Translations under genes and position numbers: made by a program
In this document: piece after piece, positions 42,455 through 58,244 of the stretch
How positions within the stretch are numbered: the first letter of the stretch is position 1
Layout: each line of letters begins with the position of its first letter
Notes under the pieces: model-generated
What the model saw: only the letters and a program-made list of their open reading frames with translations
The model's database searches: none
What the model was told of the DNA's origin: nothing
Origin: Escherichia coli
Lineage (GTDB): Bacteria > Pseudomonadota > Gammaproteobacteria > Enterobacterales > Enterobacteriaceae
Reading direction: 5' to 3' (one strand)
NCBI RefSeq assembly: GCF_024700885.2
Contig: NZ_CP117016.1
DNA: 64,000 nt

Positions 42455-42495
42455 CGTGAGTTGCCTATGCACAGTGAGGTATTCCCGCCGGCACG

Positions 42496-43305
42496 GTGCA
42501 GATGCTCGACCGGCTGGAAAGTGAAATCCTGGCTGACCGGGTGAGTGAGGAAAGCCGACGCTGGCTGGCATCGTGCGGCCTGACGGTGGCGCAGATGCAA
42601 AACCAGATGGACCCGGTGTACACGCCGGCGCGAAAAATCCACCTGTACCACTGCGACCATCGCGGCCTGCCGCTGGTGCTTATCAGCACGGAAGGGGCAA
42701 CAGAATGGTGCGCAGAATACGATGAGTGGGGCAACCTGCTGAATGAAGAGAACCCGCACCAGCTGCAGGGGCGGTATATCACTCAGGATCCGATTGGACT
42801 GAAGGGGGGATGGAATTTTTATCAGTATCCGTTGAATCCGATAACTGATATTGACCCGTTGGGATTAGCGACCTGTTTATACAGCATAACTTTAGGTATG
42901 CTTTCATGCGTTTCAGATACGCCAAGTGATGATAATTCTTATGGTGTGCTTACTATTTCAGTCGCCTCTGGTAATAATGGTAATAATATGCAATGTAAAA
43001 ATAATCCTGGTTGTACACACTTACAAAATAGAGGCCCAATACCTCCAGGGGTATGGAGCTGGAATGTTAATGGTCCTGGAGCAACTAATAGAAAACCTAA
43101 TGGTATACGTTTAGTACCGTCAGCAAATACAGAAACGTATAATCGTGATGGATTTTTAACACATAGTTGTTTAAACGCTTTTGGTCCATCTTTAGGACCT
43201 CGATTCTGTTCCGAGGGTTGTATAACTGGTTCATCTAATGACATGCAAAAATTAAATGAGCTAATATTTTCAGAGCCAGATAGCACATTAACAGTGACGG
43301 ACTAG
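42496..43305 (+). CDS. yibJ: Orphan Rhs C-terminal fragment with Cys/Gly-rich toxin-like tip
   Basis: 269-aa ORF; its first about 100 aa match the end of the rhsA core (…[16 protein letters not shown]…[18 protein letters not shown]), with a 28-codon deletion spanning [12 protein letters not shown]. Symbol from position. Confidence 0.65.
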
Positions 43306-43309
43306 AAAT

Positions 43310-43705
43310 ATGGCAAGGTTATTAACAATTGTGCTTTTTTTCTCTATTTCTGCGAATGCAGTTACTGTAAACCAATTTCAGAGAGAGTTGGATTTGGCAG
43401 ACAAGGCAATATTATGGGCACTAATATCAGCCAGTACCCAAGAGGGACGAAAAGCGTGTTCACTTAGCTATTTTTCATGTAAAGCCGCAGAGGCTGAACT
43501 CGGACTGGCATATATGGCTGCTAATGATAACAAGGCATTTCTCACATCCTTATCTAGAATAATGATGTACAAAATAGATGCTGGACTTTCCGAATCCTAT
43601 ACATGCTATTTATTAAGCAAGGGAAAGATCATAAGACCATATCTGAAGAATCTAAATCCACACCAACTTGTCGCTGATTGCATTGAAACTGTAAATAAAA
43701 GATAA
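43310..43705 (+). CDS. yibG: Small secreted protein, putative immunity partner of the yibJ fragment
   Basis: 131 aa; signal-peptide-like N-terminus (MARLLTIVLFFSISANA); 4 bp after yibJ. Symbol assigned by position only. Confidence 0.4.
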   Translation: MARLLTIVLFFSISANAVTVNQFQRELDLADKAILWALISASTQEGRKACSLSYFSCKAAEAELGLAYMAANDNKAFLTSLSRIMMYKIDAGLSESYTCYLLSKGKIIRPYLKNLNPHQLVADCIETVNKR

Positions 43706-44283
43706 AAATAAAAAAATCATTGATATAGATTCAGTTAATATTTGCAATGATAATAAAAATATAAATTGGAGAGTTAATAGTACTATTGTAGCCATTGATG
43801 ATTCTATAAAATGCATCGATGAATAATAACTTAATTATATTTAAAAATATATTAATGACTCACTCTCCAGGAGTTTTTTAACTTAGTGTTATAATGAATA
43901 CGATAATTAAAAGTGAAGAGAAAAATAGTTGTATACATATATTACATGAACCTACATTGTGATCTATAAATTAAATATTTTTAAATGTGACTGTCATCCT
44001 TCAGATAATAAAGCCATCATCGCAATAGATGGAAAAGCACTCCTGCTCTTTTTTGATTAGAGCCGTGGCAGAGGAACAACTCATATCATCATTGCGATCT
44101 CGACAATGTATGGTCTGATCCTTCGGCAGATCAAGACGGATAAAAAATCCAATGAGTTCACACTCATCCCGAACTTCTTAACATAATGGATATTAACGAA
44201 AAATCATCGCAGCCAATGAAGTAATATGCAAAAATAATTAGTCCTTACAGGGAGCAAAGTTCCATAATCTCCCCCTTCCCTAC

Positions 44284-50932: not shown

Positions 50933-51490
50933 GTTCCTTTCTCGTCGCTGTAATTACAGCCACTCACGATTTACTCGCTCCTGCTGGCACATGCAGGGGC
51001 CTGTTTTAGCGATCGAATATTTATAACGTTCTTAACATTATATATTCAACTCCACCTACACTTCTGAGCGCTCGGAGCAGGCTAAATTCTGAAAATCCGG
51101 TACAAATTAAAGAATGATGTATCAATATTAACAATGAATTGCCGCATATCAATGCTTGAAACATAATTAATTATTTAAATTTTTCTATCAGCATCGCAAA
51201 CTTCGCAATAAAACATCACTCAACTGAATATTTACCTTTCCCTGCCCTGGGCCTTTATCCGGTGAAACATTTGACATTGATTGACACCGATCATTAAAAT
51301 CCGCGCGATTAATATTATTGGCTACAAACCGAAATTGTTTGACACTTAATAACATATTCGCACAACCAATTAATACAAAAATTCTCTAACAAATTTATTT
51401 GTCGGATATGCTCCACTCTAATCATTCATAAAAAAAATGATTGTGCCGTAATTATCAACTGTATCGGGATTATGAAAAGGAATTCATCCT

Positions 51491-52174
51491 ATGAACCTAA
51501 AGAAAACACTGTTAAGCGTGTTAATAATAGTGCCTCTCTGCTTATTGGCAGGGTGTGACTATATTGAAAAAGCGAGTAAGGTCGACGACCTCGTTACACA
51601 GCAAGAGTTGCAAAAAAGCAAAATTGAGGCGCTTGAGAAACAACAGGAACTCGATAAGCGAAAGATAGAACATTTTGAAAAACAACAAACTACTATCATA
51701 AATAGTACCAAGACGCTCGCTGGCGTGGTGAAAGCGGTTAAAGACAAACAGGACGAATTTGTCTTTACAGAATTTAACCCGGCACAAACACAATACTTCA
51801 TTCTAAATAACGGTTCTGTCGGTTTGGCAGGTCGGGTGCTGGCTATTGATGCGGTTGAAAACGGCAGCGTTATTCGTATTTCACTAGTCAATCTATTAAG
51901 CGTTCCCGTATCAAATATTGGCTTTCATGCGACATGGGGCAATGAAAGACCCACCGATGCCAAAGCTCTGGCGAAGTGGCAACAATTACTTTTCAACACC
52001 ACCATGAATTCCACTCTGCAATTAATGCCTGGTCAATGGCAAGACATTAATCTGACATTAAAAGGCGTTTCGCCTAATAACCTGAAGTATCTGAAGTTGT
52101 CCATCAATATGGCAAATCTCCAGTTCGACACTGTTCAATCTGCTGAAACTCGGCAGCGAAAAAACAAAAAATAA
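51491..52174 (+). CDS. Lipoprotein with N-terminal coiled-coil segment
   Basis: 227 aa; lipobox LLAGC after the signal peptide; repeated KQQEL/EKQQ heptad-like segment; AT-rich context; immediately upstream of the autotransporter. Confidence 0.6.
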   Translation: MNLKKTLLSVLIIVPLCLLAGCDYIEKASKVDDLVTQQELQKSKIEALEKQQELDKRKIEHFEKQQTTIINSTKTLAGVVKAVKDKQDEFVFTEFNPAQTQYFILNNGSVGLAGRVLAIDAVENGSVIRISLVNLLSVPVSNIGFHATWGNERPTDAKALAKWQQLLFNTTMNSTLQLMPGQWQDINLTLKGVSPNNLKYLKLSINMANLQFDTVQSAETRQRKNKK

Positions 52175-52217
52175 ATGCAGCTTCTGCGCTTATATCAAGG
52201 AATAGAGAGCATCAATA

Positions 52218-55200
52218 ATGAACAAAATTTTTAAAGTTATCTGGAATCCAGCGACGGGCAGTTACAGCGTTGCCAGCGAAACGGCGAAGAGCCGTGGCAA
52301 AAAGAGCGGACGCAGTAAGCTGTTAATTTCTGCGCTGGTTGCGGGTGGGCTGTTGTCGTCGTTTGGGGCAAGTGCAGATAATTACACTGGGCAGCCAACT
52401 GATTATGGCGATGGCTCAGCAGGTGACGGCTGGGTTGCTATCGGTAAAGGTTCAAAAGCAAATACCTTTATAAACACAAGTGGCGCGAGTACAGCTTTAG
52501 GTTATGACGCGATAGCCGAAGGTGAGTACAGCTCTGCCATCGGGTCAAAAACCCTCGCAAGTGGTGGAGCATCCATGGCGTTTGGGGTTAGTGCAAAAGC
52601 ATTAGGTGACAGAAGTGTCGCGCTGGGTGCATCTTCAACAGCAACTGGCGATCGTTCGATGGCTCTTGGTCGTTACGCAAAGACGAACGGTTTTACATCT
52701 CTTGCTGTTGGGGACTCCTCCCTTGCCGATGGTGAAAAAACTATTGCGTTAGGAAATACGGCTAAAGCTTACGAAATTATGAGCATCGCCCTCGGTGATA
52801 ATGCCAATGCGTCAAAAGAATATTCAATGGCGCTGGGTGCAAGTAGCGCCGCATCTGCGGCTAACGCGATTGCAGTAGGCCGCAACAGTGCTGCTGCTGG
52901 CGTAGACAGCCTCGCATTAGGTAGACAATCACTTGCCAGTGCAGCGAACGCCATTACGATTGGTGCTGAAAGCGAAGCCGCTGAAAATGCGACGGCTGTA
53001 GGTACTAAAGCGAAAGCTCGAGGCAAAAACAGTCTTGCATTAGGTGCAAACAGTGATTCAACAGGTGAAGGTTCTGTTGCCCTGGGATATACAGCAGCGG
53101 CTGCTGGCGCAAGTGCTCTTGCCTTGGGGCAAAATGCGCAAGCATCAAACACAAACACCATTGCATTAGGCCAGAACAGCAGCGCATCAACCGCAAATGC
53201 TATTGCGATCGGTACAGGAAGTTCTGCGGTTGGATCAAACAGTCTTGCATTGGGAAGTTCATCTTCTGCAGGAGGGAATAATTCCGTCGCGATTGGTGCA
53301 AGCTCTACTGCAGATGAAGACAACGTTGTGTCGGTCGGCTCAGGGTCAGCACAGCGTCGCATCGTCAATATGGCGGCAGGTGAAATCTCAACAGACAGTA
53401 AAGAAGCCATTAACGGTTCACAACTTTACGCCATTAGTCGGTCGGTAGCAGACAGGCTGGGAGGCGGAGCAGATGTAGCCAGTAACGGAACAATAAAGGG
53501 GATGTCTTATAAACTGAAGAAAAGGGATTTCAATAACGTTGGTGAAGCACTCCAGTACCTTGACAATGAAACTCTGCACTGGGACTCAGCTAAAGGGGCT
53601 TTCAGCGCCAGTTATATTGTTAAAAATGCTGATGGAACGATTGCCAGTACCGTAGCAGAAAACAAAATCATCAATGTAAAAGATGGCGATATTTCGGCTA
53701 CCAGTAAAGACGCCATTAACGGCTCTCAGCTGAAAACCACCAACGATAACGTAGCGACCAACACCACCAATATCACCAACCTGACTGATTCCGTTGGCGA
53801 CCTTAAAGACGATGCCCTGCTGTGGAATGGCACCGCATTCAGCGCCGCTCACGGTACCGATGCCACCAGCAAAATCACCAACGTCAAAGACGGTGACCTG
53901 ACGGCTGGCAGCACTGACGCGGTAAACGGCTCTCAGCTCAAAACCACTAACGATGCCGTGGCAGCCAACACCACCAATATCGCCACGAACACCACCAACA
54001 TCACCAACCTGACTGACGCTGTTGACAGTCTCGGTGATGACTCTCTGCTGTGGAACGCTACTGCGGGGGCATTCAGTGCCGCGCACGGTACTGATGCCAC
54101 CAGCAAAATCACTAACGTCAAAGACGGTGACCTGACGGCTGGCAGCACTGACGCGGTTAACGGCTCTCAGCTCAAAACCACTAACGATGCCGTGGCAGCC
54201 AACACCACCAATATCGCCACGAACACCACCAACATCACCAACCTGACTGACGCTGTTGACAGTCTCGGTGATGACTCTCTGCTGTGGAATGATGCAGCGA
54301 AAGCATTCAGCGCCGCGCACGGTACTGATGCCACCAGCAAAATCACCAACGTCAAAGACGGTGACCTGACGGCTGGCAGCACTGACGCGGTTAACGGCTC
54401 TCAGCTAAAAACCACTAACGATGCCGTGACAGCCAACACCACCAATATCGCCACTAACACCACCAACATCACCAACCTGACTGACGCTGTTGACAGTCTC
54501 GGTGATGACTCTCTGCTGTGGAACGCTACTGCGGGGGCATTCAGCGCCGCGCACGGTACTGATGCCACCAGCAAAATCACTAACGTCAAAGACGGTGACC
54601 TGACGGCTGGCAGCACTGACGCGGTTAACGGCTCTCAGCTCAAAACCACTAACGATGCTGTGGCAGCCAACACCACCAATATCGCCACGAACACCACCAA
54701 CATCACCAACCTGACTGACGCTGTTGACAGTCTCGGTGACGATTCCCTGCTGTGGAACGCTACGGCGGGGGCATTCAGTGCCGCACACGGTACTGATGCC
54801 ACCAGCAAAATCACTAACGTCAAAGACGGTGACCTGACGGCTGGCAGCACTGACGCGGTTAACGGCTCTCAGCTCAAAACCACCAACGATAATGTGGCAA
54901 CCAACACCACCAATATCGCCACGAATACCACCAACATCACCAACCTGACTGACGCTGTTGACAGTCTCGGTGACGATTCCCTGCTGTGGAACGCTACGGC
55001 GGGGGCATTCAGTGCCGCACACTGTACTGATGCCACCAGCAAAATCACTAACGTCAAAGACGGTGACCTGACGGCTGGCAGCACTGACGCGGTTAACGGC
55101 TCTCAGCTCAAAACCACCAACGATAATGTGGCAACCAACACCACCAATATCGCCACGAATACCACCAACATCACCAACCTGACTGACGCTGTTGACAGTC

Positions 55201-57947
55201 TCGGTGATGACTCTCTGCTGTGGAACGCTACGGCGGGTGCATTCAGTGCCAAACACGGCACCAACGGTACTGACAGCAAAATCACCAACTTACTGGCAGG
55301 CACTGTATCCTCTGATAGCACTGACGCCATTAATGGCTCACAACTTTATGGCTTAGCTGATTCATTTACGTCATACCTTGGCGGTGGTGCTGATATCAGT
55401 GATGCGGGTGTATTAACCGGGCCAACCTACACTATTGGTGGTACTGACTACAATAACGTCGGTGATGCTCTGGCTGCCATTAACACGTCATTTAGCACAT
55501 CACTCGGTGATGCCCTACTCTGGGATGCGACCGCCAAGGGCGGTGACGGTGCGTTTAGCGCCGGTCGCGGAAAAGATAACACGGCCAGCATCATTACTAA
55601 TGTTGCAGACGGTGCAATTTCCTCTACCAGCAGCGACGCTATTAACGGCTCACAGCTCTATGACACCAGCAAGTACATTGCCGATACTCTGGGTGGTGAC
55701 GCAGAAGTCAATGCTGACGGCACAATCACCGCACCGACTTATGCCATCGCTGGCGGCAGTTACAGCAACGTCGGTGACGCGCTGGAAGCGATCGATACCA
55801 CGCTGGATGACGCTCTGTTGTGGGATGCAACAGCCAATGATGGCAATGGTGCATTTAGCGCCGCTCACGGAAAAGATAAAACAGCCAGTGTAATCACTAA
55901 CGTCGCTAACGGTGCAATCTCTGCCACCAGCAGCGATGCCATTAACGGTTCACAACTGTATACCACCAACAAGTACATTGCCGATGCCCTGGGTGGTGAC
56001 GCAGAAGTTAACGCTGATGGTTCTATTACTGCGCCGACTTACACCATTGCAAATGCCGAGTACAACAACGTCGGTGACGCCCTGGATGCGCTCGACGATA
56101 ACGCTCTGCTGTGGGATGCAACAGCCAATGACGGCGCAGGTGCCTACAACGCCAGCCATGACGGCAAGGCCAGCATCATCACAAATGTTGCTGATGGTAA
56201 CATTGGCGAAGGCAGCACTGACGCCATCAACGGTTCTCAGCTGTTTAACACCAATATGCTGATCCAGCAGAACAGCGAAATCATCAATCAGCTTGCCGGT
56301 AACACCAGCGAAACCTACATCGAAGATAACGGTGCGGGCATTAACTATGTACGTACCAACGACAACGGCTTAGCGTTCAACGATGCCAGCGCTTCAGGTA
56401 TTGGCGCTACGGCTGTGGGTTATAACGCTGTCGCCTCAGGCGAAAGCAGCGTAGCCATTGGTCAAGGTAGCAGCAGCTCCGTTGATACGGGTATCGCCCT
56501 GGGTAGCAGTTCCGTTTCCAGCCGTGTAATAGTTAAAGGTTCTCGTGACACCAGCGTGTCGGAAGAAGGTGTTGTGATTGGTTATGACACCACGGATGGC
56601 GAACTACTTGGTGCGTTGTCTATTGGTGATGACGGTAAATATCGTCAAATCATCAACGTAGCCGATGGTTCCGAAGCCCATGACGCCGTTACGGTTCGCC
56701 AGTTGCAAAATGCCATTGGTGCAGTCGCTACCACGCCGACCAAATACTTCCACGCTAACTCAACAGCTGAAGATTCACTGGCTGTCGGTGAAGACTCGCT
56801 GGCAATGGGTGCGAAAACCATTGTTAATGGTGATGCAGGGATCGGTATTGGCCTGAACACTCTGGTGTTAACTGATGCAATCAACGGTATTGCTATCGGT
56901 AGCAACGCGAGTGCAAATCATGCAAACAGTATTGCGATGGGTAGTGGTTCCCAGACCACCCGTGGTGCGCAGACTGACTACACCGCCTACAACATGGACG
57001 CGCCGCAGAATTCTGTCGGTGAATTCTCTGTCGGCAGCGAAGACGGTCAACGTCAGATCACCAACGTCGCGGCTGGTTCAGCGGATACCGATGCGGTTAA
57101 CGTAGGTCAGTTGAAAGTCACTGATGAGCGCGTAGCGCAAAATACCCAGAGCATTACTAACCTGAACAATCAGGTGACGAATCTGGATACTCGCGTTACC
57201 AATATCGAAAACGGCATTGGCGATATCGTAACCACCGGTAGCACCAAATACTTCAAGACCAACACCGATGGCGTAGATGCCAACGCGCAGGGTAAAGATA
57301 GTGTTGCGATTGGTTCTGGTTCCATTGCTGCCGCTGACAACAGCGTCGCGCTGGGTACCGGTTCCGTGGCCAACGAAGAAAACACCATCTCTGTGGGTTC
57401 TTCTACCAACCAGCGTCGTATCACCAACGTTGCTGCAGGTGTTAATGCCACCGATGCGGTTAACGTTTCGCAGCTGAAGTCTTCTGAGGCAGGCGGCGTT
57501 CGTTACGACACCAAAGCTGATGGTTCTATAGACTACAGCAACATCACTCTCGGTGGTGGTAATGGCGGTACGACTCGCATCAACAACGTCTCCGCTGGCG
57601 TCAACAACAACGACGCAGTGAACTATGCGCAGCTGAAGCAAAGCGTGCAGGAAACGAAGCAATATACCGATCAGCGGATGGTTGAGATGGATAACAAACT
57701 GTCCAAAACCGAAAGCAAGTTGAGCGGTGGTATCGCTTCTGCAATGGCAATGACCGGTCTGCCGCAGGCTTACACTCCAGGTGCCAGCATGGCCTCTATT
57801 GGTGGCGGTACTTACAATGGTGAATCGGCTGTTGCTTTAGGTGTGTCGATGGTGAGCGCCAATGGTCGTTGGGTCTACAAATTACAAGGTAGTACCAATA
57901 GCCAGGGTGAATACTCCGCCGCGCTCGGTGCCGGTATTCAGTGGTAA
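52218..57947 (+). CDS. upaG: Trimeric autotransporter adhesin (UpaG/EhaG-like)
   Basis: 1909 aa; extended signal peptide ([21 protein letters not shown]…); many head/neck repeats with INGSQL and NVAAG motifs; C-terminal YadA-type anchor ending …[13 protein letters not shown]. Symbol from recalled location beside lldP; exact allele not determinable. Confidence 0.85.
53845..55260 (+). repeat. In-frame 234-bp tandem repeat array (about 6 units) inside the adhesin gene
   Basis: The 60-mer acgtcaaagacggtgacctgacggctggcagcactgacgcggt(a/t)aacggctctcagctca recurs at 53881, 54115, 54349, 54583, 54817 and 55051, a spacing of exactly 234 bp; each unit encodes a 78-aa repeat. Confidence 0.9.
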
Positions 57948-58244
57948 TGATCCATTAACTTAGTGTGACTAAGGGCAATTCTCTGATGAGGATTGCCCTT
58001 TTCTTTACCAGACATCTCCCTCCACCAAGAATTGGCCCTACCAATTCTTCGCTTATCTGACCTCTGGTTCACAATTCCCCAATTAAAACTCACATCAATG
58101 TTGCCAATGCATAACATTTAGTTAACCATTCATTGTCATTATCCCTACACAACACAATTGGCAGTACCACTTTTACACAACGTGTGACAAGGAGATGAGC
58201 ATCAGACTCATTACACGATGTGCGTGGACTCCAGGAGACCTGCA

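Follow-up and report, generated by a model that had tools for sequence, protein, structure and literature searches.

A probable SadB-type helper lipoprotein encoded next to a trimeric autotransporter adhesin gene between yibL and lldP in Escherichia coli

Introduction

Only two dedicated helpers of trimeric autotransporter adhesins (TAAs) are known, and SadB of Salmonella enterica is one of them. Grin et al. (J Biol Chem 289:7388, 2014; PMC3953254) described the lipoprotein gene directly upstream of a TAA gene in the mtl–lld interval of Salmonella, Shigella and Escherichia. E. coli K-12 lacks both genes through a deletion of about 5 kb, and the operons on either side are undamaged (PMC3953254). 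SadB was located to the inner membrane by sucrose gradient, and its tri-acyl anchor was identified by mass spectrometry (PMC3953254). The protein is a homotrimer whose coiled coil spans nine heptads and which carries three beta-sandwich domains (PMC3953254).

The surface amount and the protease resistance of the adhesin SadA both rise when SadB is co-expressed, in E. coli as well as in Salmonella (PMC3953254). SadA made without SadB is more protease-sensitive and stickier. On Western blots from Salmonella, total SadA is higher from sadBA than from sadA constructs. An independent study reported SadA-based display to be about 3-fold higher with SadB (PMC11054257). A direct SadB–SadA interaction was not demonstrated, as phage display was non-convergent and cross-linking and pulldown were negative; the mechanism was inferred by Grin et al. 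by analogy with the MATH domains of TRAF2 (PMC3953254).

The other helper is TpgA of Acinetobacter sp. Tol 5, which serves the TAA AtaA. According to a 2026 preprint survey, SadB and TpgA are the only TAA helpers described, and SadB homologues occur only in Enterobacterales. UpaG and EhaG are the corresponding adhesins of uropathogenic and enterohaemorrhagic E. coli, respectively. Truncated to its last 170 residues, UpaG forms trimers and assembles quickly in a K-12 strain. Literature searches returned no paper in which the E. coli orthologue of SadB was tested with UpaG or EhaG.

The present work concerns a lipoprotein gene in a stretch of 64,000 nucleotides of E. coli DNA (contig NZ_CP117016.1), hereafter the window. 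The helper link itself is already known, having been published in 2014 (Grin et al., PMC3953254), and the name has entered RefSeq; only the population counts and the allele mosaicism are new here. The current understanding is thus unchanged: the published system is confirmed, and population-level numbers are added to it.

Gene Organization

The genes run in the order mtlA-mtlD-mtlR-yibT-yibL-lipoprotein-TAA-lldP-lldR-lldD, and the features between yibL and lldP are collected in Table 1. The lipoprotein ORF starts with ATG, 5′ of which a purine-rich AAAGGA stretch is the likely ribosome-binding site. Over the length of the gene the sequence is 100% identical to that of strain 1190. Between the lipoprotein and adhesin genes the consensus scan gave no terminator-like site for the + strand, and a spacing of 43–44 bp recurs in O157, MS8324, E. 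fergusonii and Pseudocitrobacter. The hairpin behind yibL would isolate the cassette from yibL transcription.

Table 1. Positions of the features in and around the lipoprotein–adhesin cassette, numbered from the first letter of the window
Feature	Position	Strand	Evidence
Whole cassette: promoter region, probable sadB orthologue and TAA gene	50934..57968	+	K-12 homology ends 50933, resumes 57969
Terminator-like hairpin after yibL	50977..51000	+	Consensus scan
Best sigma-70-like promoter candidate, TTGACA-18-TAAAAT, 11/12 matches	51271..51300	+	Consensus scan; composition
Probable sadB orthologue, 227-aa predicted inner-membrane lipoprotein, probable helper of the downstream trimeric autotransporter	51491..52174	+	ORF; PDB 4C47 match; Foldseek; RefSeq name
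Signal peptide (residues 1–21) and lipobox LAGC, with Cys22 and the Asp23 inner-membrane retention signal	51491..51559	+	Sequence; 13 homologues
N-terminal coiled coil, residues 24–91, about 10 heptads, Gln-rich core positions	51560..51763	+	Heptad scan; AF2; SadB likeness
C-terminal beta-sandwich, MATH-like topology, residues 92–213	51764..52129	+	AF2 strands; Foldseek
43-bp spacer between lipoprotein and adhesin genes	52175..52217	+	Sequence; consensus scan
Trimeric autotransporter adhesin, 1909 aa, positional orthologue of UpaG, EhaG and SadA; presumed lipoprotein client	52218..57947	+	Pfam; RefSeq names
Strong terminator-like hairpin, 13 pairs and T-run, right after the adhesin stop; operon end	57971..58000	+	Consensus scan

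A sequence-only reading of the window had described a 227-aa lipoprotein with an LLAGC lipobox and a heptad-like stretch, 43 bp upstream of the adhesin gene and in the same orientation, at a place where K-12 has no such gene in its yibL–lldP junction. All of this holds. The ORF is real and carries Cys22 followed by Asp23; the heptads keep one continuous register and include a 14-residue duplication; the adhesin ORF starts on the same strand at the distance given; and in K-12 MG1655 yibL is directly followed by lldP.

The adhesin contains the Pfam domains ESPR, YadA_head, YadA_stalk and YadA_anchor, and is named 'YadA-like family protein' or 'EhaG' in RefSeq. Nucleotides 53835–55250 of its gene form a tandem repeat with a 234-bp (78-aa) unit, repeated 6.1 times with 96% identity; in one copy Gly is replaced by Cys, giving AAHCTDA in place of AAHGTDA. 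The length of the adhesin ranges from 1531 to 1909 aa across the loci examined.

The Lipoprotein

The signal peptide, counted to the lipobox cysteine, spans residues 1–22 and is made up of MNLKK, a hydrophobic core and the lipobox L19-A20-G21-C22, in which Cys22 is encoded by nt 51554–51556. The +2 residue, Asp23, is invariant in an alignment of 13 homologues, and Gly21-Cys22 is nearly so. In the same alignment the signal peptide and the coil vary far more than the C-terminal domain.

The heptad scan finds a single unbroken register over about residues 24–92, whose core positions are occupied by Ile, Leu, Phe or Gln. Inside the coil lies the duplication, ELQKSKIEALEKQQ / ELDKRKIEHFEKQQ, of which 10/14 residues are identical. 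Within the protein, variation between alleles is greatest in the coiled coil, with 44–100% identity; the C-domain is the conserved part, with 78–95%. The AF2 monomer model (mean pLDDT 76.8, and about 77–92 across most of the C-domain) consists of one long helix over residues 3–91, followed by a beta-sandwich with strands over residues 92–206.

Searches with family models place the protein poorly. A Pfam-A hmmscan at E≤0.01 and at E≤10 gave no relevant family, DUF3251 included. NCBIfam gave sub-threshold noise and a weak match of PRK11530, which we take to be the YajI model, to C-domain residues 117–203. Identical and related E. coli genes are labelled 'DUF3251 domain-containing protein' in RefSeq, and 'SadB/YajI family lipoprotein' in newer records; differing models or versions are the probable source of the discrepancy between the DUF3251 label and the Pfam result. 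For one homologue cluster (P0041) a precomputed PF18241 match is recorded.

Comparison with Known Systems

Against the PDB, phmmer gave one strong match, 4c47_A (E=2.6e-69), which aligns residues 23–227 to residues 3–207 without a gap. The lipoprotein and SadB share 109/205 residues (53%), identity being 45% over the coiled coil and 57% over the C-domain. Foldseek, run with the AF2 model, returned the three chains of 4C47, the trimeric lipoprotein SadB of Salmonella enterica, with E about 3e-21 to 3e-20 and TM up to 0.79, followed by YajI (2JWY) and then by eukaryotic SPOP MATH domains. The same similarity hierarchy of SadB, YajI and MATH was reported by Grin et al. (PMC3953254).

The likeness to SadB (STM3690; PDB 4C47) extends to the whole locus. 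Both genes occupy the mtl–lld position directly upstream of a TAA gene, with a spacer of 43 bp here and 44 bp in Salmonella sadBA. Both proteins fall in the same length class, have a lipobox with Cys22 and +2 Asp, a coil with a duplicated 14-residue 'K-I-x-x-L/F-E-K-Q-Q' motif, and the same beta-sandwich C-domain. They differ in sequence, being only 53% identical, and in that the partner SadA has 1461 aa, whereas the partner here has 1909 aa and is of the UpaG/EhaG type.

YajI of E. coli, a paralogue of uncharacterised function, has the same C-domain fold (Foldseek E=5.5e-5) and shares the RefSeq name 'SadB/YajI family'. However, its identity to the lipoprotein is only about 14%, and it is encoded at yajC-secDF / nrdR-ribDE-nusB, where there is no autotransporter operon. 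The gene in the window, located at yibL–lldP and adjoining a TAA gene, does not have the placement of yajI.

TpgA resembles the lipoprotein in being encoded beside its TAA and in promoting passenger display. Unlike the lipoprotein, it belongs to the outer-membrane/peptidoglycan side and is widespread in Gamma- and Betaproteobacteria. Pfam and NCBIfam detect no TpgA-type domains (BamE-like, with or without OmpA peptidoglycan-binding) in the lipoprotein.

The TRAF/MATH domains of TRAF2 and SPOP likewise join a trimeric coiled coil to a beta-sandwich with the same strand topology (Foldseek E ~1e-3 for SPOP), and offer a model for avidity-based binding of three unfolded chains. There is no detectable sequence similarity to them and no demonstrated common ancestry; what is shared is a working principle, not a family.

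Homology to SadB over the full mature protein, the lipobox with Asp23, the coiled coil, the beta-sandwich and the TAA-adjacent mtl–lld position are all present in the window. Very probably the gene is orthologous to sadB of Salmonella and opens a two-gene sadB–TAA operon between yibL and lldP, with a product that helps the adhesin.

Distribution among E. coli Genomes

The sequence-only reading had proposed to count how often the lipoprotein gene occurs together with the adhesin gene, and the counts bear out the association. In blastn searches of 5426 complete E. coli genomes, the lipoprotein gene was found in 4149, a 686-bp junction probe running from the lipoprotein 3′ end across the spacer into the adhesin 5′ end in 4150, and an adhesin anchor probe (the last 648 bp of the gene) in 4154. 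The matches are chromosomal and single-copy, save for a few genomes with a second match. Co-occurrence was inferred from the matching genome totals together with the junction probe; in the matches sampled, both genes lie under the junction match, decayed loci excepted.

The clean empty junction of K-12, covered to at least 80%, is found in 1262 of the 5426 genomes. Junction and empty site add up to 5412/5426, showing that the locus is essentially two-state.

Two decayed loci were encountered. In strain ET650 (L004, 5286–6312) IS1 truncates sadB and the adhesin ORF is intact; in strain OkiPb01695 (L003, 5615–9396) an internal deletion fuses the remnants of sadB and of the adhesin gene into pseudogenes.

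Ancestry of the Locus

Homology to K-12 ends one base past the yibL stop codon and resumes 22 bp past the stop codon of the adhesin gene. At its empty site K-12 has 95 bp, which are mostly the native adhesin–lldP spacer of other alleles, including a REP-like element. Since K-12 keeps the native spacer, it carries a plain deletion of the cassette. The possibility that these 95 bp are a foreign or REP-mediated replacement was considered and rejected on the same ground.

The same synteny, with the 43–44 bp spacer, occurs in E. fergusonii, Pseudocitrobacter vendiensis and P. corydidari, in line with the published taxonomic range. Because E. fergusonii, Pseudocitrobacter and Salmonella share this synteny, the sadB–TAA pair is best read as ancestral and lost as a unit, not as recently acquired.

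The sequence-only reading had assigned the two genes to an AT-rich block, and had thought them possibly co-acquired and functionally linked. The AT-richness stands for the upstream 558-bp intergenic region (35.7% GC) and for the lipoprotein gene (41.4%), but not for the adhesin gene, which has 52.3% GC against 50.4% for the window. Likewise the linkage stands but the acquisition does not, since the shared synteny and the K-12 spacer point to an ancestral pair that was lost together. A recent horizontal acquisition on an AT-rich island is rejected: the GC content of the adhesin gene is normal, the synteny crosses genera, and the AT-richness is confined to the promoter region and sadB.

The REP-like element (GCCGAGTAAGGTGTTCACGCCGCATCCGGCA) is present at the K-12 empty junction (L002, 6030–6124) and missing from the window strain (57948–57968). 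In MS8324 (L006, 13381–13470) and in EhaG-type strains, the stretch from the adhesin gene to lldP contains at least part of it.

Allelic Divergence

The cassette is hyper-divergent between E. coli lineages. In the comparison with EhaG-type strains its flanks are 95.6–97.5% identical, while within it the upstream region is unalignable and the 3′ part of the adhesin gene is about 81% identical. The boundaries of the divergent block coincide with the K-12 deletion endpoints, and the cassette is exchanged as a unit between E. coli lineages.

The lipoprotein gene shows 65–81% nucleotide identity to the EhaG-linked alleles, and the protein 66–67%. The latter is exceeded by the 74% identity to the lipoprotein of Pseudocitrobacter vendiensis. 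Divergence within the species that is larger than that to P. vendiensis suggests ancient alleles or inter-species exchange.

The two halves of sadB do not follow each other. The coiled coil is 100% identical and the C-domain 85% identical to those of MS8324, and the corresponding values for E. fergusonii are 44% and 95%. By these alignments sadB is a mosaic with a breakpoint near 51800, and the coil and the C-domain recombine independently.

Among seven loci, the SadB C-domain tends to track the ESPR region of the adjacent adhesin, a tendency that linkage alone fits equally well. As physical linkage can explain the tracking, no claim of co-evolution is made. That the C-domain is allele-matched, beyond linkage, to the ESPR-proximal N-terminal part of the adhesin encoded beside it, and that SadB is a client-specific chaperone, is unlikely; if it were so, natural chimeras could map the recognition determinant of SadB.

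Proposed Function

As read from its signal region, the lipoprotein would be exported by Sec and lipidated on Cys22, and the +2 Asp would keep it in the inner membrane, facing the periplasm. A homotrimer held together by the coil of about ten heptads may present three MATH-like beta-sandwich domains, in the way that was shown for SadB. Following Grin et al., the trimer would bind, weakly and transiently, three unfolded adhesin chains leaving the Sec translocon. The long repetitive passengers would be held together and in register, their export would be synchronised, and more correctly folded adhesin would reach the surface through the Bam-assembled 12-strand barrel. The lipoprotein would act as a helper, not as an essential factor.

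An enhancement of adhesin display by the lipoprotein is supported, by analogy with SadB. The sequence-only reading had suggested an export or surface-display accessory, and such a role has been shown for Salmonella SadB, which has 53% identity, the same architecture and the same position. The truncated UpaG trimerises in a K-12 strain, and K-12 MG1655 is without the gene; thus the lipoprotein would be at most a helper for the long passenger and would not be needed for trimerisation of the barrel.

Several observations weigh against the helper reading. No SadB–SadA contact was shown, the truncated UpaG assembles in K-12, and the adhesin ORF of ET650 is intact. The identity to the characterised SadB is only 53%, and 45% in the coil.

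Some of these observations would also agree with a lipoprotein that raises the level of the adhesin without any scaffolding of trimerisation or register, acting as a general periplasmic holdase, as an anti-degradation factor, or in cis on transcription, mRNA stability or translation. On the Salmonella Western blots, sadBA constructs gave more total SadA than sadA constructs did, the physical interaction of SadB and SadA went undetected, and the minimal UpaG barrel construct forms trimers when the lipoprotein is missing. Yet SadA made without SadB is qualitatively different, in its protease sensitivity and stickiness. Moreover, a pure cis effect leaves unexplained the conservation of the C-domain (78–95%) beside unalignable upstream DNA, the invariant +2 Asp, and a trimeric architecture that matches a trimeric client. 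We consider this alternative quite improbable.

There is hardly any likelihood that the lipoprotein has a function of its own unrelated to the adhesin, like YajI, and is a mere passenger in an indel-prone segment: the paralogue YajI is unlinked to any autotransporter and ET650 kept its adhesin ORF when the lipoprotein gene was disrupted, but the presence and absence of the lipoprotein gene match those of the adhesin gene almost perfectly, the 43–44 bp spacing is conserved across genera, and experiments show an effect of SadB on SadA.

The helper role would have a practical side. K-12 hosts used for UpaG, EhaG or surface-display work are without the helper, and co-expression of the lipoprotein may raise the yield, as that of SadB did for SadA.

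Other Features of the Region

The spacer between mtlA and mtlD varies in length, being 94 bp in the window, 229 bp in K-12 and 520 bp in MS8324. The MS8324 spacer holds four REP-like matches (L006, 4423–4751).

Upstream of yibH, at about 42491–43826 of the window (L001, 1–1336), the annotation of strain 1190 shows a Tlde1-domain gene together with an RHS fragment and an Imm57 immunity gene that is frameshifted, a set that looks like a degenerate toxin/immunity module.
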